A stretch of 64,000 nucleotides of DNA. Source: Podarcis gaigeae (Eukaryota). The stretch is taken from the NCBI GenBank assembly GCA_964106915.2, contig OZ066924.1; one strand, given 5' to 3'. Below the pieces are notes generated by a model. It was not told the DNA's origin and did not search any database. It worked only from the letters and a program-made list of their open reading frames with translations. The stretch's first letter is position 1; each line of letters starts with the position of its first letter. Of this stretch, positions 426 through 52,372 are shown piece after piece. The position numbers were made by a program, and so were the translations under genes.

Positions 426-965
426 TGTCATAGGCTCGCTGGCTGCAGAGGAGTGGAAGGAGGCACCAGCTTTGGTGGTGGGATGACAATGAGGGAGCAG
501 ACTGGGAGGAGGAGGTGTCGGAAGCAGAAGAGGTAACAGGGTTTAGTGAGCAGGGAGAGGCTGTGGCAGAGAGCAGTTTAGACTCCCAGGCTGAAGCGGA
601 GGCTGGGAAGGGGTGGAGTCAGGCTGCTGAAGAATCCAAGGTGCGACCCCTAAAAAGACAGAAATGAAAAGAGCAGAACAGAGATTGGTTGTGCGCCAAC
701 ACATTTTACGATTGCTTGGAAAACAACCTCTAGAGGAGGAGCCTTAGAAAGGGGTGGGGTAGTGGGGACCTTCAGTCTTCATAACTGCCTCATTGCGGCA
801 AGTCCTATTGGGAAGTCCCTGGAATCACTAGGCCTGAGCTGTTTTGGATTCTTTGAGTAAATAGTTACCGTAACTTAGTTTTTTTAAAAAAATTTTTAAA
901 ATATTTTAATAAATAGTTAACCTTGTTTTTTATTGCTGACTTACGCTTGACTCAGGCTCCTGACA
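426..965 (+). mobile_element. Solo LTR (Gypsy-like), U3 with acidic/basic peptide remnant
   Basis: TGTCA (426) ... TGACA (965) termini; flanks catgg/cttgg (5-bp TSD, 1 mismatch); AATAAA at 908; 3' end gctcctgaca shared with the element at 39778. Confidence 0.7.
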
Positions 966-10533: not shown

Positions 10534-11146
10534 TGTCATGGAGGGGGTAGTTTGATCCTGAAGAGGACTGGGAAGAGCACAGTTAGCTGGAGCTGGGCAA
10601 CATCCTAGCGGAGATTGGGAAAGCAGCAGTGGGACATGACCAAGAAGGGTCAGGGAAGGAGCATGGAGGATGGAGGATGGTGAGTTAGTTCCTGGGGAGG
10701 GACCAAGCAGGTTGGCAGAGAAGCATTCTGCTCTAGTGACACGGGGCACAGCTAGTCAGATCCCTTCTGTCATAGAACCACCTCCAGCACACCCCCTTGG
10801 GAGGCGCTGAGATCGAATCTGACACCAAACAGGCATTGACTCCATCTCCACCTCCTAGGACACAGAGACACCAGAACTGACACAAACGGACCTTGCAAGC
10901 TCAGCCCAGATGTAGTTTCCGTTTGCTTGCCCTGTCTTGGGATTCTGGCTGGCATAAGGAAGGTGCAGGAAGCATGTTATTTGATGGATCAACACCTTAG
11001 CTTGCTCCCGGACGTGTATTCTCCTGCACTCCTGCTGTACCTTGTAATTGTGCCTTGCTTATGCACAGCTCTGATTTAAGCATTAAAGTCTTTGGCAGAA
11101 ACCTTTGGGAGTTTGAGTTCTTCATCTGGCAGTGAGGGCCAGGACA
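10534..11146 (+). mobile_element. Solo LTR-like element (old), peptide remnant in U3
   Basis: Starts TGTCATG, ends GGACA; ATTAAA near 11083, ~60 nt before the end; no clear TSD. Confidence 0.55.
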
Positions 11147-11990
11147 ATATTGATTGAATTTACATCCTTTGCTTCCTCCCACAAATCCAAGAGCTTTCCT
11201 GTCTTTCTAACAGCCCCACAGCTACAGATGAGCTGATCTTCCCTGTTTATTTTCTTTGTTGTTCCATGCATATTTTAATGGGGATTTATTGTATTTTAAT
11301 TGTAAGCTGCTGAGGAAATGTGGGGAACTGAATTTAAAATGGAACAGGATGTTCCATCCCATCCTACACCTTGTGTTGAAGGGGGAAATAGTAACAGGGA
11401 CAGAGGCTGTCTGGTACAAGGATCTCATGATTACAGTCAGAATATTTATGAATTGTGCATTCCATCAACGTTTCTTAAGTCCTTACTTATGAGCAGGAAA
11501 GGACATCCCTCATCATTCAAAACTGTTCATTGCTCAGACTTACTGACAGTTTGCTTTTGATCACTGCTATTAGCCATTCACTTTACATACAAGAAACCAT
11601 TTGGAATTCAGCTCTTGAATAATTTGCTGCAGCAACCGGGCTTTGGGACGATTACAAAGAAAATGGTTTGAGAATTGGAGCCTTACGACCTGCCTTATGT
11701 GCATTTATTCAAGAGCATGCCCTACTGTTTTCATTGCGATTGCAGTCCTAGGATGACCTGGGTGAGTCCCATCGAAACAAATTGACACTATGTGACATTG
11801 ATCACTGGTTGGTTATGATCTTGGAGTATCGATTTTCTCATGGAGTGTGATGGAAGTTTGAATCCAGATAAGTACAAAATGTTGAAAATGGTTCTCCCTT
11901 TTCGTATATCTAGATTGTGTGGGGTGGAGTGGGGATGGATGTGGGTGGGCCTCTTCAGATGCAGCAGTTTATTCCCATAGGCTGACTTCT

Positions 11991-19922: not shown

Positions 19923-21239
19923 CAGTGGCGTAGCGTGGGGGGTGCAAGGGGTGCCGGCCGCACCGGGCGCAACATCTGGGGGGGGCGCACTCGCAGCCTC
20001 CGGAGTTGCCGAAGAGCCTCGGGCGCAGAGTTTAACTCTGAGCTGCCTGTGATGTGGAGGGCACGACTGTTCCGCGGGGGGCGTGGTGTGGATCTGTACC
20101 GTTTGCCGCTTTGATCTGGCGCCTTTTGCGGAGAGCACAAGACGGGCACGTCGCTTTGCGGGAGCCGGGAAGAGGAACCTGGTTCAGTCCCGCGGGGCTC
20201 GCTTCTCTTGTGAGCCCCCCCCAGCAGCCTCCCGCTGCCCACGCTGCGCTTCTCCGCCCCCGCCCCTTCTCCTCTCTGTCAGCAGCCGTCTGTGTCTGAT
20301 TTGAGAGGAGAACGGAGGCGAGGCGAGGCGGCTGCAGCCAGCGACCCCCCTCCGCCTCCCACCCCGGGGCTACCAGAAGCCCTCCTCGGCTTCAGCTGGG
20401 GACAGAGAGTGCGCCTGCTCTTCCCTGCGGGCCGCTGCCCCATTGGAAGGGCGGCGGAGGAGCTGCAAGCCGGGGTGCGCGCCATGAGCCTCAGCCTTGG
20501 GGTTCAGGGGCCAGTGGTGGAAGCAGGGCCAGTGGTGGAAGTGCGGCGCTTTCCCCGGGTTGCTGGGCGCGGGGAGCCCTCGGGGCGCAGGAAGAGGCAG
20601 CGCTCCTGGCTGCAGGTCCGAGGCCCGGCTGCTGCCCGCCTCTCGCGGCAGGAGGGAGTTGCGCTGCCGCCGCCGCCCGCAAGGAGCCAGCCACTCGCTG
20701 CCTGTGAGGCTCCTCTCTGGCCGGCCTGCCAACTGGGCTCATCCTCCTTGCCAGCGCAGGCAGCGGGCTCTGCTCCCGGGGGACCTCCTGGGGGAGCGCA
20801 GCAAAGGGGCGCCCTTCTCAGCCTCCCCAGCAAAGGGGCACAAGCAAAGGGCACGTCCCGGCGCTGTGGTCGTGCCCTTTGCTCCGCTGCAAGCCACGCT
20901 GCCGCTCGCCTTCGCCTTTCACAACAGCCCCGCAGGGTAACCCAGGCTGCGAGGTCAACCCAGCGAGAACTCTCCGAGGCTTCTCTCGGGCCCCAGACCA
21001 GCCCTCCAGCGCCGCCACGGCCGGTCTCTTGAGTCCGTTGCCAGGCCACGGAGGGCCAGCAGCCAAGCCTGACAAGCGCAGAATATAGAGGCTTGTGGGG
21101 GGGGGGGCGCCACGGCGTGGGGCGCAAATTACTTGCCTTGCCCCGGGTTAGGGGGCGCAAATTACTTCCCTTGCCCCAGGTTAGGGGGCGCAAATTACTT
21201 CCCTTGCCCCGGGTGCTGACAACCCACGCTACGCCGCTG
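19923..21239. mobile_element. GC/CpG-rich non-autonomous hAT transposon (Tip100-like TIR), 1317 bp
   Basis: 17-bp TIRs cagtggcgtagcgtggg / cccacgctacgccgctg (1 mismatch); perfect 8-bp TSD acttcaaa (19915-19922, 21240-21247); no transposase. Confidence 0.92.
21119..21215. repeat. Three subterminal 33-bp tandem repeats
   Basis: ggggcgcaaattacttNccttgccccNggtta x3. Confidence 0.9.
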
Positions 21240-38143: not shown

Positions 38144-39827
38144 TAAATATTAATGAAGATGCACTGAATAAAAGATAAATAAGAACAATGGGCTGAGACA
38201 TAGGCTGTTGTTGCTGTTTTGCAGGTGTGAGTCAATTGCATACTGGCAAATTCAGGTTGGGCAATAAGAGTGGATTTGGTACTTATGTGCCACAAAGCTA
38301 TTTGCACGCGCGCGCACACACACACACACACACGTTTTTTGTGGTAAGGAAAGTTTTGGAAAAAATTGCACTGGAAAGTGGGGAATGAAAACTGCAACAT
38401 GTATAACCTCCCTGCAAACAAATCAAGATGAATGCTCTATAGCTGAGTTATCTGGAAGTGGCCTGAGTGCTCTCGTACATCACTTTTCATCGAGCTCATT
38501 TGTAAAAACAGAAATTGCAGGAATCTACATCACAGGGTTGCTGCAAGTATAAGCAAATTAAAATGAAGAGTGCAGTGTCCCTTTGTGTTCATACTAAAAA
38601 GAGAAGATGTGGTTGCCACTTGTTTTTACTAGCCCTGCTCTTATGACCTGTTTAGTTTCTGTATGCCCAGCTGCTTTTAAAAGCACAGGAATGGAGTCAA
38701 TAAAATCTGGTAACTGCAAGCTCTGATGAAAAGCAGCTATGTCAGACAAAAACAGCCAGCAATCTGATGTTAAGGGTGGTCTATTAGATGATAGTCCTCC
38801 ATATTAAATTGCTGTAATCGTACAGTGAGAAACAGAATTACCAAAAATCTGAAAAAAATAGTAACTGAACATAGGCATAAAATAGACGTCTGCATTTGAT
38901 TTGATCAAAATATATTAGTGGTTTTTATGCAGGAACATGAATTGATGGTCTTTTTATTAGCAAGGGACTCACTTAAATTGGCAGGCAAAAATGGAATGAT
39001 TAAAAGGCAGAAATAAATTGGTTTCTACTTTTGGGTGGTGGTGGTGGTGTGGTGTTTTGTGTCTCTGTGTGTGTGCGCTACAGTTCCTAGCCAGGCTCAC
39101 TTTTAAGTCAGTGGGCTTTTTAAATGAGAGCAATGAGACCTCACCTTGAAATATTTCTGAAAATATTGCCCTTTCATTCCCACTAGAGATCATCAGAGAA
39201 GGGAAAAATTGGCCTTGGCATCTTTAAACTTAGATTAGTGAGAGCATTTTTTAAGGATTTGTGCTGGCTTTTTAGAACAGTGGGGAATTCTAATTTTAGG
39301 CTTAGAAGGATATTAGGATCTCAGATCAATATCGGGAGAATTTCAAAGTATTAGGAGCGAAATGTTACATAAAGGATGCAATCTGTTGAGTTTCTGGGAG
39401 CTGGCATGTTATGGTAACATATCTGCTGAGAAGCAGCCAGGGATTCCAGTGTGTGTAATCCTCTTTATACAGGAACAACGGGAAGCTACTTCATCCTGAG
39501 TCAGACTATATATATATATATTTCCAGTGCATATGGAATAAATTTGCTGTGTTCCAGTAAGGTGACCTACTTGTAAGCAAGCAACAACACCTAGATTGGA
39601 GCTTTTCAGTTAGTTTCTCTCTACAGCTCTTATACCCATTTATTTTTTGCTATTGGGGAGCAGGCTGGAGAACAATCAGCTATGTATGTATACAGTGTTG
39701 GCTCCAGAATTGAGGGGAGAAGGGGCTCTTGGACAAGATCTGCTTCATAGGCCCACCTCCTCACCACTGTTGCTACCTGTCAGGAGCAAGCCAGCAGTAA
39801 CTCATACCATGCAAGTTGGAGTTAACT

Positions 39828-41632
39828 TTTTTTTAATAATAATTTTTATTGGTTTTAACACAAAGACAAACAAAACACAAAACAAAAACATATAAAAACA
39901 TTTAAACATGACTTCCCCATACCTCCCTTTCACTGCATCCTTGTTTTACAACTCTTTAGCAACCCTTCAGTCAATTTCTCTAGTAGTTTTCTTTAAATTT
40001 ACTTAATGTTAATGTTTTCAGCTGTAATTCTCTATTTCTTACCCCTAGACATCCTGTCAGTCCTCAATTTTACAACAATTTTTAAGATATATTTTAAATT
40101 TCTTCCAGTCCTCTTCCACTGTCTCTTTCCCCTGGTCGCGGATTCTGCCGGTCATCTCTGCCAGTCCCATAAAGTCAATCACCTTTGTCTGCCATTCTTC
40201 CAGAGTAGGTAGTTCTTGCATCTTCCAATACTTTGCCAACAGGATCCTTGCTGCTGTGGTCGCATACATAAAAAAAGTCCTATCCTTCCTTGGCACCAAC
40301 TGGCCGACCATGCCCAAGAGAAAAGCCTCCGGTTTCTTTATAAATGTCCACTTAAGGACTTTTTTAATTTCATTATAGATCATTTCCCAAAAGGCTTTGA
40401 TCTTTGGGCAGGTCCACCAGAGATGATAGAAGGTACCTTCAGACTCATTACATTTCCAACATTTATTATTGGGCAAATGGTAGATTTTTGCAAGCTTGAC
40501 TGGGGTCATGTACCACCTATAGATCATTTTCATTATGTTCTCTTTTAAGGCACTACATGCCGTAAACTTAATGCCGGTGGTCCATAACTGTTCCCAGTCA
40601 GCAAACATAATGTCATGACCGATATCCTGTGCCCATTTAATCATAGCTGATTTAACCGTTTCCTCCTGTGTATTCCATTTCAACAGCAAGTTATACATTC
40701 TAGATAGATTCTTAGTATTGGGTTCTAGCAGTTCTGTTTCTAACTTTGACCTCTCCTTCTGAAATCCTAATTTCCTGTCCTGCTTAAATGTCTCATTTAT
40801 CTGATAGTAATGTAACCAATCTCGAACTTTAAACTTTAGCTTCTCATGACTCTGGAGTTTAAACTTTTCACCATCTTGTTCTAGGATTTCACAATATTTT
40901 GGCCAGTTAGGTTCCATGTTTAATTTTTTCACCGCCTTGGCTTCCATTGGTGACAGCCACCTAGGGGTTTTGCTTTCCAACAAATCTTTATATCGAATCC
41001 AAACATTATACAAAGCTTTCCTAACAATATGGTTTTTAAAGCCTTTATGCACCTTTACCTTGTCATACCATAGATATGCATGCCAACCAAAGTTATTATC
41101 ATACCCTTCTAAGTCCAAAATGTCTGTGTCTTCAAGGAGTAGCCAGTGTTTCAACCAGCAAAAAGCCGCTGATTCATAATAGAGTCTTAAGTCCGGCAGG
41201 GCAAAACCCCCTCTATCTTTTGCATCAGTTAAGATCTTAAATTTTATTCTGGGCTTTTTGCCCTGCCAGACAAATTTAGATATATCTTTCTGCCATCTCT
41301 TGAAGCAATCCATCTTGTCTAAAATCTGTAAGGTCTGAAATAAGAATAACATTCTAGGCAATACGTTCATCTTGATAACAGCAATTCGGCCTAACAAGGA
41401 AAGTCTCAGCCTAGACCATATTTCTAGATCTTTCTTAACTTCTGTCCAACATTTTTCATAATTGTCTTTAAATAAGTTCACATTCTTAGATGTTAAATTC
41501 ACCCCTAGGTATTTCACTTTTTTCATTATTTCCAAACCAGTTTCACTCTGAAATCTCTCTTTTTCTTCCATTGTTAAATTTTTTTCCAACACTTTCGTTT
41601 TCTGTTTATTCAGTTTAAATCCTGCTACTTGA
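39828..41632 (-). mobile_element. L1-clade LINE, young, 5'-truncated (1.8 kb)
   Basis: Poly(A) tail and AATAAA; 10-bp TSD ggagttaact (39818-39827, 41633-41642); unbroken ORF2 C-terminal half. Confidence 0.95.
40057..41631 (-). CDS. L1 ORF2p C-terminal fragment (RT end, DUF1725/zinc-knuckle region); no start codon
   Basis: QVAGFKLNKQKT, KYLGVNL, LSLLGRIAVIKMNVLPR, GGFALPD, CWKC...HLWWTC; no internal stops. Confidence 0.85.
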   Translation of the reverse strand, partial: QVAGFKLNKQKTKVLEKNLTMEEKERFQSETGLEIMKKVKYLGVNLTSKNVNLFKDNYEKCWTEVKKDLEIWSRLRLSLLGRIAVIKMNVLPRMLFLFQTLQILDKMDCFKRWQKDISKFVWQGKKPRIKFKILTDAKDRGGFALPDLRLYYESAAFCWLKHWLLLEDTDILDLEGYDNNFGWHAYLWYDKVKVHKGFKNHIVRKALYNVWIRYKDLLESKTPRWLSPMEAKAVKKLNMEPNWPKYCEILEQDGEKFKLQSHEKLKFKVRDWLHYYQINETFKQDRKLGFQKERSKLETELLEPNTKNLSRMYNLLLKWNTQEETVKSAMIKWAQDIGHDIMFADWEQLWTTGIKFTACSALKENIMKMIYRWYMTPVKLAKIYHLPNNKCWKCNESEGTFYHLWWTCPKIKAFWEMIYNEIKKVLKWTFIKKPEAFLLGMVGQLVPRKDRTFFMYATTAARILLAKYWKMQELPTLEEWQTKVIDFMGLAEMTGRIRDQGKETVEEDWKKFKIYLKNCCKIED

Positions 41633-44380
41633 GGAGTTAACTCTTTATTAGCAAAAACACGATCTGCACAGGAGTGTCGGGCCTAATGAGCATCTCATCT
41701 CCAGTAGGTCTTTCCCCCATGAATCAGTTGCTGAGAGTGAAAGTCCCTGCTTCTCCACTACCATCTAGGTCTCTTCCTCTCCAGGGCTTTTTCCAGACAG
41801 TCGGAGGCTGTGCCTGCATTCAGTCAGTCTCTCCTCTGCTCTTTTCATGCCTCTTTTGGTCCTGGGAGACAAAGGGAGAGGGGAGCTTGTCGCAGCAGGA
41901 GGGGCATCTAAATTTGGGATTACAGCATGCAGGGAGGGGTTGGGAGCAAATTAGGTTAACCTTTGTGTTCCTAATTTCTAGCATTTTTTAAAAGTAGTAT
42001 TTAAGTGCATAATTGCATTCTTATTCTGAACAAGTTCAGTTGGGAGCTAAGGCACAGAACTGACCTTCAGGGTCCATCTATATTCTGGACTTCATTCAGT
42101 GTATTCTGTGTTGCAGGGAGATTGAGGATGATGGTTGAACTTCATCCTCTTCCTTGTGATTGAGAACCAGAATTCAACTTGCACCAGTAGGTGTTTATTT
42201 ACCTCCACTGTTGAAGGCAGTATGTCCTTCAATACCAGTTGTTGGGAATCTCAAGTGGGGAGAGTGCTGTGCATATGGGGTGATGATGTGTAGACCCCAG
42301 AAATAGTCCTATTGTCTGACTGTATCTGTGTATTTTATTATGCATTTGAATTTGGAATCCCAGTATCACGCCAGACCGTTTTCATGCCGTTTGTACAACA
42401 AAACAGTCCCTCTGCCCTTCTTGCGGGGCAGGCGGGGAAAGCATTCTTCATTGATTTTCCTTTTAAAATATGTGTGCCATTGATTTGGGAGGAAAATATT
42501 TTCTCAGTCAGAGAGCCGAATGTGTGGGACTCTGACCAAACCTTGAACATTGCCACGTTCACAGGTCCATCACTAGTCTTGGAGATCTGTGAACAGAATG
42601 GATGTATATAAAATAAACAAAGAGCACTGAAGCAAAATCTTGTCCTGAGCCAATAAAGAGTAGAGCAAACAAGAAGCGAGAACCCTTGAGCTTGGTGGAT
42701 ATAGTTTCTTTTAATTAACTACATTGATGGAGAGCAGGCTTTTAAAGGTCATTTCCATCAGCAGTGATATTTGATGTCTGTTGACAAATGAATGCTTTCT
42801 GCATTTTTCCCATGTCTTTGGCATGCTCTCAAATGGCTGAAGAGCACACAGTCATTGGGAAATGCAGCAACAAAACACTTAACTGTCCTTGTTCCACCAT
42901 AGGCAAACATCTGAAATTCTTGATAGTGCTGTAGATTAATTTGTTTTTTCCTTCTTAAATGTTTACTCAACACACAGCTTTCTCTTTGCCTGCATATAGA
43001 TATTTGACAGTAGAAAACTCAGAGTTAGTTGTTAGCCTGGAAAGAATTGTAAGATTCCTCCACCAACTACCATACTTCTAAATACAGTGGTGGTTTGTGC
43101 CTATTGGGACAAGTAAGGTGGAAGGTAGGGAGCTAAACAATAGGTGCAGCCAGAACCAATGAAAGGCAGGACTGGATCCAATGGCAGGGAGAACCAACTA
43201 ATTCTAATTTTGACCCCATTTTCTTCTCTGCTGCGTTCTACAAGGGCAACATGGAAAGATCGTTCAATTATATTTTAGTGTGCAGGCAGGTGGGTTCAGG
43301 AGGAAGCTGCTCTTTAGGTATACTGGATGAGAAAGCTATAGCTCTCCAGAAGTTATTGGATTTTATTCCCATAAGCCCTAGCCAGCATGGTCATTGGTCG
43401 AGGATATTGAGAGTTTTATTCCAGCAGGATTTGATGGGTCATAGGATCCCTACCTCTGATTCAGGGCTCTCTAGGTAATAACCAGTTCTGTCAGCGCAAA
43501 GGTTTCTGCTTGTGCAATGGAACGTTCTCCCACATTGCTCCCTCCAGGTTGCCTAACTCTGTTCTAGGGACTCCCTCAGTCCTCTGGAACTGATTTGGGG
43601 GAAGAGATGGGAAGTCCTGTTGTGGAATAGAAAATCCTTGGTAGTTGAATACTATGCCAACAGTTTGTAGCATGCCTGTACACATACTGGTAATCATTCC
43701 AGGTGTTCTGAAACTGGCAAAAAAAAATGTTGCAGCAGTGTTTCTGTAGACATTCTAGATACTGTGTTCTGGACCAAGTAAAGCTTACTGAGACTGCCAA
43801 GAAGCAGCCTTGTGAACAGTATGTCACACCAGTCCATTCTTGATGTAACCAAAGCATGTGTCACTATATGATTTCCCCAGAAACAGGTGCTTATGGTGCA
43901 CCTGCCTCATTCTGGGCACTGCTGTTCTCTGACCACCCAGACGCAGCTGCCAGGAGTTAAGTCCCTGTTATAACTGTGGCATCCAGGTCGGAGCAGATGG
44001 AAGCAATTTTATCCACAAAATGTTTAGTAAAACTGTCGCAGCAAGTGACTGGGCATATCCTCTTCTAACAACATAAGGACTTTCATGATGTTACACATTC
44101 CTTACGAGTAATTGTTCCACTGGACCACTCTGTGTGAACACATTGATAGCAGAAAAGGAATATTTCTTTCCTGCTATTTCTGCCACAGAACAGGCCCTCA
44201 GGTGGGCTCTAGCATATGTTTCAGTCAGGCATGTCTGTTTTACTCCACTGTTGCATTGTTTTCCACCCTTCCCATTTCATTTCCTGACTCCCTGAAAAGG
44301 TCAGGTTGACTCTGCCGACAGGAAGAGGATTATTGGGAGTGCTTTTGTATTGTTATAAGAATTTAAGGTCTCAGATATAT

Positions 44381-44747: not shown

Positions 44748-45243
44748 TGTGATACCACACAGTGGGAGGAGCCCTGATGGGGTTTGTTGTGCCCTTTGAA
44801 AGGCCCAACAGAGCCTAGTTGCAGCTGCAAGAGGGTCTAATGGAGCCTGTTGCTGCTGCTGCTGCTGCTGCTGCAGGAGGGTCTGATTGGGCCCAGCCGG
44901 CTGTGGAATAATGAGGGGCCCCAGCCCCCTCATTGAAAATAAGTGTCAGGGACACGCCCAGCAGAGAGGAATCTCCAGAGGAAGAGGAATTGGCTGCACC
45001 TGAGTCGCCAAGAAGTAGGAGGCGGAGCAAGCGATTAGAGCCGAGGCGGGCCAGCAGGAGGAAGGACGTGGCGTATATCTGGCCTTGGGAGGGGTCAGAA
45101 GCCAGTTGAGTCAACTGACTCCGATGGTGAAGGATGAGTTGTGGAAGCTTGGACTGCTGTAAGCCTGTTATTGAGAAATAAACCTCAGCTACTTAAACTG
45201 CCAGCGTTCCATGTCTTGTGTGGGGGAAGCGCTAAACATGACA
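44748..45243 (+). mobile_element. Solo LTR-like element with peptide remnant in U3
   Basis: TGTGA ... TGACA termini; AATAAA at 45177; no clear TSD; contains (CTG)8. Confidence 0.6.
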
Positions 45244-46039
45244 ATAAGGGGCACTCCCCCCCCCCCATAGATGGTGTGCCTGTCCTACAGCAAACATATA
45301 AAATGTGTATGACAGATCTGATAGCCTAGTTTTTGGAGACTCCAGTGAAGTTGAGACCGACCTTGTTAAGCTTACCAAGAAGCCTGGTAGTCTTGCAACA
45401 ACGTTTTCCTCCAGCACAGGGAACTCTTTAAAAAAGTCTGTTTTAATTGCTGGCTGAGAACAAAGGCACACATTGGGAGATTATTGCATTACAAAAGGAG
45501 GGGATCAGCCTTAAAACCAGCTGTCTTCTGCTTAGGGCTGCATCAGTGTAGAATAAAATGTCAAGCGTGTTTGTGAAGGCACATTTAAGCTGCATGAAGA
45601 CTGAAGCCTCTTAGCCAAAAGTGGCCCGGCACAGGAGGGGTGGAAATCCTCCTGGCCTGTGGGTGTAATACTAGCGGCAGGGAGCACCATGAGCCACGTA
45701 AAGGTGAGGGCTTAGAAAGAAGATGAACTGGTGGCGAATGATAAATGTTTGCATATAAAGCAGAGCCTTGCTTATTTTGATGAGTCAGAGTTGAATGAGG
45801 TCACCGAGTACTTGTACATTTTTTATTGGAATATTAATGTCTGAAATTACAGACAGCCTGTCTGTGGCTGTACACACTTCAGTCCTGATATGATTCTTTT
45901 GAAGATTCACTGGAGGTTTTTCAAAAGGGCTGAAATATATAGACTCTGCAGAAATATATAGAAGACTCTTCTGTTGTGCTAAGTGGGGAGGCAGAGCAGA
46001 AGAAGGCCAGGTTACCTTAATTGCCAGCCAGGTAATTTA

Positions 46040-50225: not shown

Positions 50226-51127
50226 TGTCAGTGTAGAATGTTCCCACTGCTGGGATTTAACTCTCAAGACAGATGACGAGTGAAACTTCTAGCTTCTAAA
50301 ATGGTTTATTGAAACACACTGTCTATGCATACAAATTCTGTAGAGCACTGGAAACAGCTTGCACAAGCTTTCTGCCTTTCTGGTGTGGTGGTGAGAACTG
50401 AATGTAAAAGAGGAGTCTCCTTCGTACAGCTGCTGCTAACAAGTTTCTACTCTTCTTCATGGGGCCTAACCTGGCTCCTGTCCAAGACCAAACCACAGAG
50501 GCATTTACATATAAGTAAAGAAGTAATATTTTATTATAGCAGTCTAATGTTACAAACTCAGCAGCTAGGAAAGAGAAGACTCTAGTCCACGTGTCCTTAC
50601 AAGGCGAAGGAGTAGCATCAACATATCTGATGTGAGAGCAAGAAGAATCCAAGATTAGTAGCAAGTTCCAAGACTGCAAAGTTCTGTGCAGAGTTCCAGG
50701 ACTGCACAGGATCAGTGAAGTTGTTCCAACAAGTTTCCCCATTTACCTGCCAAGCTTTTAAGCAGAGGTAGGGAAAGCTCAGCTGCTCGCGAGTCCCAGC
50801 CACACAGAAGTCCCTGGCCTGAAGGTAGACGCTCCTCCTAGTGGGATTAGTCTCCTTTCTTCTCTTGATGCACTGCCTCTTTCTTGATGCATGCTGCTTC
50901 CTCTGAACTTTTCCACTGTGTCACAGTAGTTTGTGCCCAGAGTTCCCCTCATCCTCCACATGGTAGGAAGGCGCAGCCCCTGGGTCTCCTGTTTTGACAG
51001 GTCTGGGCCTGCCCTGGGGGTACTGCTGCAAAGCCTCACCCTCTTCATTCTAAGTCATTGTCCTCAAGTGCCTTCCTTTCCTGGCCTGAATCAGAGCACT
51101 CAGAGGGACCAGTGCCCTTGCCAGACA
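50226..51127 (-). mobile_element. Composite of two LTR-like pieces (50226-50478 and 50479-51127)
   Basis: Two minus-strand AATAAA signals (~50308, ~50530), each 50-80 nt from a TG(T)C end; the larger piece starts TGTC at 51127 and carries an RRSxxL remnant. Confidence 0.5.
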
Positions 51128-52372
51128 GGAAGTAATATCTGTGCAAGCTGTTTCAGACTGAAATGTCAAAAGTTCAGTTTAAAAGATTAAGGTACTTCTT
51201 GCATTCTGTTTTTGAAATGAGGCTTTCCAATTACGGGGGTTATCATGATGAGATCCTGCACTTCAAAATCTGCCGCTGCATAACTGACAATAAGCCAAGG
51301 AATGGTGTGCTAGTGTGAAGTACTAGCTTAATGTAGCATGAGAGGTTTGCACTGCAGGGAAGGCAAGAGGTGGACACCTTTGGGCCAGGGATTGGGTTTT
51401 CACTTTCCCCTCTTAGAACTTATCCCATATGGGTTACCAGCAGGCAAAGGAATCACGGAATTAGTTTTTGTCAAAAATGGATTATTCTGCTTTATGGGAG
51501 GTGCTGTCATTTGCCTTTAGATAAATTTCCACCTTTTGTCACATTTGAGTATATTAGCCCACTCATTTGTTAATGAAAGCCGCTGACAATAGGACTCCAA
51601 ATGGGAACGAAAACCATGCTATTATAAAATAATACAGTGTTATGTAGCCAACAAGCACCAATTATAGAGGCTTAACTGCACTTCAAGGAAGTCATATCTT
51701 GCACAATGGGAAGCCTTATGTGTTAAACAAATGATCCAACTCAGACCTCCAGCTCAATGCAAATAAAGTACAATTTAACTGTACAGCAAATTTGAATGAA
51801 GTAATAAGTTTCCATTCTGGCATTTTTTTTTTTGTTCCATTAAACTTGGGAAATCAATAGTTAGGTTCTATAAACTAGGAAGCATGTAAAAAAGGAAAAA
51901 CTTATTCTGAAAAATGCCACTAATAGGATTTATTTTAACTCAAAAATGTTTCAGAATACATGTTCCTCCTTCAGTACCAAGTTACAAATGAACAACATTA
52001 TATACAGGGAAATTTCAAGTGCTTGAAACATTACAAAGAGGTAAAATATGAGCAGTGTTTCAGAGCATGCTATCAAAGTAAGCAGTGGGTGAGGCAATTT
52101 TTTGAAGAAAAAAAATGGTCTACATAACCTGAAACCGTCTGAAAAGTTTAAGAGATGCTAATTTTTTTTTAAAAAAAAAGATCATGTGTAAAACATTGTT
52201 GGGAAATGAAAGTAAAACCCAGAGTACAGACCATGGTAGGCTAACTAACATGTACGTCATTACATTGTTTGAAGAAGGCCGAGCGCTCTGGAGAAGCTGA
52301 TCACTGAAGCCACACTGTGCTTGGCTCCACGTATGGCCTCATCTGCCCCAACAACAAATATTGGAGTCAAAG

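Follow-up and report, generated by a model that had tools for sequence, protein, structure and literature searches.

An integrase tail encoded in the 3' LTR of lizard Ty3/gypsy chromoviruses and its possible role as a second chromatin tether

Introduction

In group A of the plant CRM retrotransposons, pol continues into the 3' LTR, and the CR motif is encoded there (PMC3059260, PMC3605345). This motif stands in for a chromodomain and goes with centromere targeting (PMC3059260, PMC3605345, PMC11302176). The CR domain has been described as a helix, TRARAR/K, borne by a tether of low conservation, its mechanism and partner being given as unknown (PMC11302176). CRM group A is the closest precedent for the lizard elements described below: a pol frame that enters the 3' LTR is matched by the lizard families Y and Z and, as we infer, by family A. 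In contrast to CRM group A as portrayed there, the lizard elements keep their chromodomain, which is located upstream of the polypurine tract, reside in a vertebrate host, and have an acidic spacer followed by RRSxRL or another basic helix. The word TRARAR/K was absent from the tails read from Y, Z and the sister loci of family A. The lizard elements do not belong to CRM; they are built alike and at most work alike. Thus, the extension of pol into the 3' LTR as such is known already, and the lizard tail is a variant of it in which the chromodomain is kept.

The chromoviruses of fish and frogs, which we take to be of the sushi type, have the same domain order as the lizard elements, Gag-PR-RT-RH-IN-SH3-chromodomain. 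Fish predictions end in a junction word similar to GG.SVT, and in the two fish proteins consulted the chain stops about 12 residues beyond it, unlike the long lizard tails. Retroviral U3 regions can also harbour accessory genes such as nef and sag, each a separate open frame with an own start or a spliced message, whereas the lizard LTR frame is continuous with pol and has no conserved ATG.

At the protein level, the relevant comparison is with proteins binding the nucleosome acidic patch. HMGN, Dsup and Dot5 do so via RRSARLSA, RRSSRLTS and RRSARIAT, respectively (PMC12487698, PMC13347269). In foamy virus Gag, acidic-patch tethering is described to steer the choice of integration sites (PMC9040877, PMC5072296). 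The arginine anchor by which foamy virus Gag, LANA and IE1 contact the acidic patch is akin to what we propose for the lizard tail, but these anchors belong to Gag or to herpesviral proteins and not to an LTR-encoded integrase tail (PMC9040877). Among the openly accessible articles listed by literature searches, no description of an LTR-encoded integrase tail or of an HMGN-like motif in vertebrate gypsy elements was found.

Results and discussion

A solo LTR of a Ty3/gypsy chromovirus

The window is a stretch of 64,000 nucleotides from the lizard Podarcis gaigeae. An earlier note on this DNA had treated positions 44748..45243 as a single LTR that codes for an acidic, tryptophan-containing part (QWEE) followed by SPRxRR and RRSxRL. 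Comparison of this region with the own genome (1.5 Gb) yielded 55 other matches, none of which (0/55) spanned query bases 1-188. The matches, the ends and the flanks place the real LTR at 44944..45243 on the plus strand: it starts with TGTCA, ends with TGACA and is flanked by the 5-bp target-site duplication ATAAG at 44939..44943 and 45244..45248. The preceding plus-strand sequence, 44748..44943, is part of an older, unrelated short dispersed repeat which was hit by the LTR insertion and continues past the LTR at about 45249-45285. QWEE falls in this repeat and is outside the system. The dispersed repeat, also seen at the loci L299-L309, measures approximately 250-300 bp and contains internal palindromes.

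In three copies of the same LTR family, which we named family A (L021/L031, L032 and L037), the LTR is preceded by integrase, an SH3 domain, a chromodomain and a polypurine tract, and in L031 by RT and RNase H stretches together with rve, SH3_Tf2-1 and Chromo. Therefore, 44944-45243 is the LTR of a Ty3/gypsy chromovirus, and the window copy, which belongs to the short subfamily of family A, is a solo LTR. The domain order given above is that of these lizard elements, and the full Ty3/gypsy chromovirus domain set was found in the family Y copy L126. Target duplications of 5 bp occur in the window and at many other copies, a G-rich tract lies ahead of the 3' LTRs, and an entry from Podarcis muralis is an 84% match to the protein of a related element.

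In the U3 of the window copy, a frame starting at LTR base 2 is open for 54 codons (44945..45106, plus strand) and would correspond to the integrase tail described below. It contains SPRSRRRSKRL at 45005..45037, as the earlier note had reported, and its RRSKRL part (45020-45037) resembles the nucleosome-binding motif of HMGN, Dsup and Dot5. In most family A copies the frame stays open for 60-120 codons from LTR base 2 and ends at a common stop; a small deletion near 45060 is private to the window copy, whose frame stops earlier. The phase relative to a landmark near the common stop is kept in 16 of 19 whole family A copies with lengths of 283-638. Further downstream, an AATAAA at 45177..45182 (plus strand) is a likely polyadenylation signal. 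Near the end of the coded part, family A LTRs conserve a near-perfect palindrome (45104-45118) around TGAGTCA, a core that we take to be AP-1-like.

Copies of the elements are spread over many contigs. Much of the full-length gypsy complement, with many near-identical and nested copies, is located on contig C32, possibly a non-recombining sex chromosome. A family A element on this contig at 17.6 Mb (L032:6330-6930; L097:1989-2353) holds two nested solo LTRs, a Y-type one within pol and another in the region of the purine tract.

The pol frame continues into the 3' LTR in young related families

In families Y and Z the gag-pol frame does not stop after integrase and chromodomain; it crosses the polypurine tract and proceeds through 100-117 codons of the 3' LTR. 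Family Y was found by a chromodomain search in which the motif was not used. Eleven of its 20 loci, which were picked for long frames, read 115-120 codons into the 3' LTR, and L126 has a single frame of 1583 codons between LTRs that are 98.8% identical. Among 26 distinct family Y junctions, some of them near-identical duplicates, 16 are in phase, and 14 of these read at least 100 codons. The tail sequence of this family was already present, unremarked, in an automatic UniRef entry. In family Z, 22 of the 29 junctions recognised in 30 loci picked by chromodomain similarity only are in phase, and so are 18 of 19 and 19 of 20 junctions at further Z-like loci that were picked partly for long frames.

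For family A itself, none of the three copies with an intact junction is in phase (0/3), these junctions being old, and a fourth copy has no junction. Read-through in this family must therefore be inferred. Seven of 15 older sister loci are in phase, and the sisters L109 and L370 read in frame into the LTR; the LTR-coded part of L109 aligns with the long-subfamily A (16/32 identical, E 4e-5). The idea of the earlier note that such a peptide could be a Pol or integrase tail reading into the 3' LTR thus holds directly for the young families Y and Z and by extension for A. An LTR-coded tail is very probably real in Y and Z and, with somewhat less confidence, probably also in A.

The remaining 10 of the 26 family Y junctions are out of phase, which may mean that the tail is dispensable or that purine runs slip. 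Where the junction sequence was inspected, phase slips lie mostly in purine runs and may reflect decay, slips of reverse transcription or assembly errors.

Composition of the tails

The tails have in common an acidic first part, an [ST]P site and a basic end. Across all six reading frames of the window, SPRxRR and RRSxRL each occur once, both within SPRSRRRSKRL. When the window LTR was shuffled 3000 times with its dinucleotides preserved, 0.23% of the shuffles gave the pattern RRS.RL, the motif having been chosen after this copy was seen; for a family Y LTR the rate was 0.4%. For the length of the open frame in the window copy, P is 0.055.

RRSKRL is found in 8 of 17 family A copies and RRSLRL in some family B copies. 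The family Y tail ends in APRRSARL, with R.S.RL in 57 of 68 Y LTRs, and the serine and leucine of RRSARL are kept across three Y subfamilies. In the tails of family Z and in 20 further Z-like loci no RRSxRL was found. Instead, the Z clade has a conserved end of its own, TP..RR.L.RRE.RRR..VKELLCW.KF.KRP, and its chromodomains (L278-L297, L389-L408) have lost two aromatic residues, the first and the third, that are retained in Y and A. A CW-basic word also terminates the tails of L100, L117 and L380.

Across families the tails share a charge pattern more than a sequence. Profiles of Y and A score the other families at the shuffled maximum or a few bits above it, and only the Z profile finds clear relatives. 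The LTR peptides gave no match in Pfam, and all Atlas matches were below 0.9. In an SH3-chromodomain tree with 33 rows, Y and A fall on different sides; thus the RRSxRL word in both is not demonstrably inherited from one ancestor. The single small-protein architecture that the earlier note proposed for divergent LTR families was consequently overstated: the acidic-[ST]P-basic pattern is common to them, but its tryptophan part in the window came from another repeat, Z lacks RRSxRL, and at the sequence level most profile scores between families do not clearly exceed those of shuffles.

Long acidic-plus-basic tails were also seen in library proteins of lacertids, an amphisbaenian and a viper. An RRSxRL-type word is present in 1 of 140 protein-library tails, many of these entries being chimeric gene models. 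In 20 of the 140 library matches (P0148, P0164 and others) the chromodomain is directly followed by RGRP, presumably an AT-hook-like word, with the fish form RPRGRPRR; it may be another second tether.

A possible nucleosome anchor

Y RRSARL and A RRSKRL match HMGN, Dsup and Dot5 at R, R, S, R and L (PMC12487698, PMC13347269). Unlike HMGN, the lizard motif resides in a retrotransposon integrase tail without other HMGN likeness and is known from sequence and a model. For this model, 37 natural residues of family Y were combined with H2A and H2B of this genome; the Y peptide was the only one modelled. In the calibration, 51 of the 78 solved pairs but only 2 of the 108 mismatched ones attain the docking mark, and peptides are outside this calibration. 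The Y peptide with H2A-H2B scored 0.75 against 0.02 for the best control, a score that may reflect like complexes already solved. Contacts agreed by at least 18% between runs, the pLDDT of the partner was at least 40, and one of the three runs scored 0.02. The confident modelled contacts are those of PRRSARL with H2A E61/E64 and H2B Q47 (mature numbering), which equal the contacts published for Dsup (PMC12487698, PMC13347269). It is PRRSARL that the model sets on the acidic patch, rather than a longer run of arginines upstream. Since peptides lie outside the calibration and like complexes are solved, it shows likeness and not binding. The family Y tail motif is thus predicted to grip the acidic patch, and the acidic-patch binding put forward in the earlier note has docking-model support in this family only, in two of three runs.

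Based on these observations, we lean towards the view that the tail is a chromatin tether, the second one beside the chromodomain, and that in the LTR family of the window copy the first 60-120 codons likely encoded the end of integrase. After cleavage of the polyprotein the tail would remain attached to integrase. The basic end of the tail differs between families, with RRSARL in Y, RRSKRL in A and another basic helix in Z. It would dock on nucleosomes, for the first two families probably via the acidic patch of H2A-H2B, and this docking would keep the integration complex on chromatin, tuned by phosphorylation of the [ST]P site. The window LTR itself makes no such protein, because solo copies have no pol upstream.

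The main rival to the tether accepts the tail as a real integrase extension and regards its basic end as a signal for nuclear import or general nucleic-acid binding, with the HMGN likeness being incidental. The ends of retrotransposon integrases can carry basic import signals, for example in Ty1, the tails are alike in charge pattern more than in sequence, and family Z conserves a basic end without RRSxRL: in seven deep copies of the Z clade, the final 42 codons show synonymous and non-synonymous differences at 44:42 (w 0.41). Against this rival, the RRSARL serine and leucine are retained in the three Y subfamilies, and the model places exactly PRRSARL on the acidic patch. The two roles can coexist, and we regard import or unspecific binding as the sole role of the basic end as rather unlikely.

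Selection acts on the LTR part of the pol frame

Selection was assessed by counting subfamily-marking differences among real copies with an assumed transition/transversion ratio of 3 and no correction for multiple hits; these are simple counts, which were also made without transition weighting, and the three subfamily pairs per family are not independent. In the LTR-coded part of family Z (36, 6 and 4 copies) the synonymous:non-synonymous counts were 24:16, 26:27 and 34:37, corresponding to w of 0.26, 0.41 and 0.44 (p at most 0.0011). The adjacent pol gave w of 0.22-0.32 and the other frames 1.0-2.2, and past the stop nothing in the Z LTR was significant. In family Y (19, 28 and 16 copies) the effect is modest (w 0.47-0.68, p 0.03-0.09), and the last 45 codons on their own are not significant. 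Between 18 short and 9 long copies of family A there are 5 synonymous and 2 non-synonymous differences (p=0.02). For 29 copies of family B the ratio is 7:4 (p=0.003) with one reference copy and 2:2, not significant, with another. Within the LTR, purifying selection thus acts on the pol frame only, ahead of the stop, in line with the protein-level selection that the earlier note had anticipated. The continuity of the gag-pol frame together with selection in that very frame identifies the LTR-encoded protein as an integrase tail and not as a stand-alone peptide.

These counts bear on whether read-through is just tolerated, its sequence being shaped by promoter-level DNA constraint in a stop-poor, purine-rich U3. 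Open frames of the observed length are not rare enough in shuffles (0.2-5%; P=0.002-0.03 for four copies other than that of the window) to be more than weak evidence for coding in purine-rich DNA. Further, many copies are out of phase, the end of the family A frame overlaps the palindrome, and triplet-like purine repeats favour in-frame slippage. Constraint at the DNA level would not, however, single out one frame, and in each of the families Z, Y, A and B the synonymous excess is confined to the pol frame and to its part ahead of the stop. For family Z mere tolerance is largely refuted, and overall we consider it improbable.

Least probable is a stand-alone small protein or transactivator translated from an own ATG or a spliced RNA, a stand-alone peptide being one of the two options given in the earlier note: an ATG at the frame start, at LTR base 5, exists in 3 of 11 families (Y, B and the L117 family), and three automatic UniRef gene models (P0003-P0005), probably annotation artefacts, join the 5' LTR ATG frame to gag, but 5 of 11 families, including A-short and Z, have no ATG in frame at all, which makes such a peptide unlikely, pol and the LTR form one uninterrupted frame in the young families, and the U3 sits upstream of an LTR's transcription start.

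The LTR-encoded integrase tail bears on how vertebrate gypsy elements choose and hold chromatin. It is quite possible, and we put it forward tentatively, that squamate chromoviruses use their U3 as a second, exchangeable module by which integrase is targeted, and that some lineages mimic HMGN and dock on the acidic patch. If true, the plant CR domain would have a counterpart in animals, an HMGN-type anchor would exist in a retrotransposon integrase, and thousands of lizard solo LTRs, usually taken as non-coding, would be a fossil record of the protein evolution of this module. The HMGN-type word is a short natural peptide that is directly testable on nucleosomes, and the Z clade, with its chromodomain minus two aromatic residues and its different tail end, offers a natural comparison.

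Other LTR-like sites in the window

The earlier note had listed four other divergent elements with all or part of the motif order. They represent three families only, since two of them belong to the abundant family B: a solo LTR at 426..965 on the plus strand, and a 5'-truncated LTR on the minus strand at 39778..41905 (upstream end approximate), which is interrupted by about 1.8 kb of a LINE fragment. The two are 68% identical over 148 bp. The family is marked by an acidic/Trp part, SPRT and KRAEQR, with RRSLRL-like words in other copies, and the two window copies carry SPRT..KRAE.R..HSLRL or QHILRL. In these old B copies the parts lie in different frames. Neither three junction patterns nor a peptide search nor tblastn of pol revealed a pol-linked family B copy; the coding origin of B thus rests on motif likeness and shared variants.

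The remaining two sites are old LTR-like elements, family C at 10534..11147 (plus strand) and family D at 50479..51130 (minus strand, start approximate). Their best motif-like words are weak, RCSFRL and RRSVYL, respectively, and no continuous frame was seen in either. By tblastn of pol against the loci of the window families B, C and D, no link to pol was found. The locus L159 had suggested that family C is linked to pol, but this was ruled out, as the matching part belongs to an LTR fragment nested in a Z element. Elsewhere in the window, positions 20000-21100 form a CpG island of 69% GC, which is likely a gene promoter.
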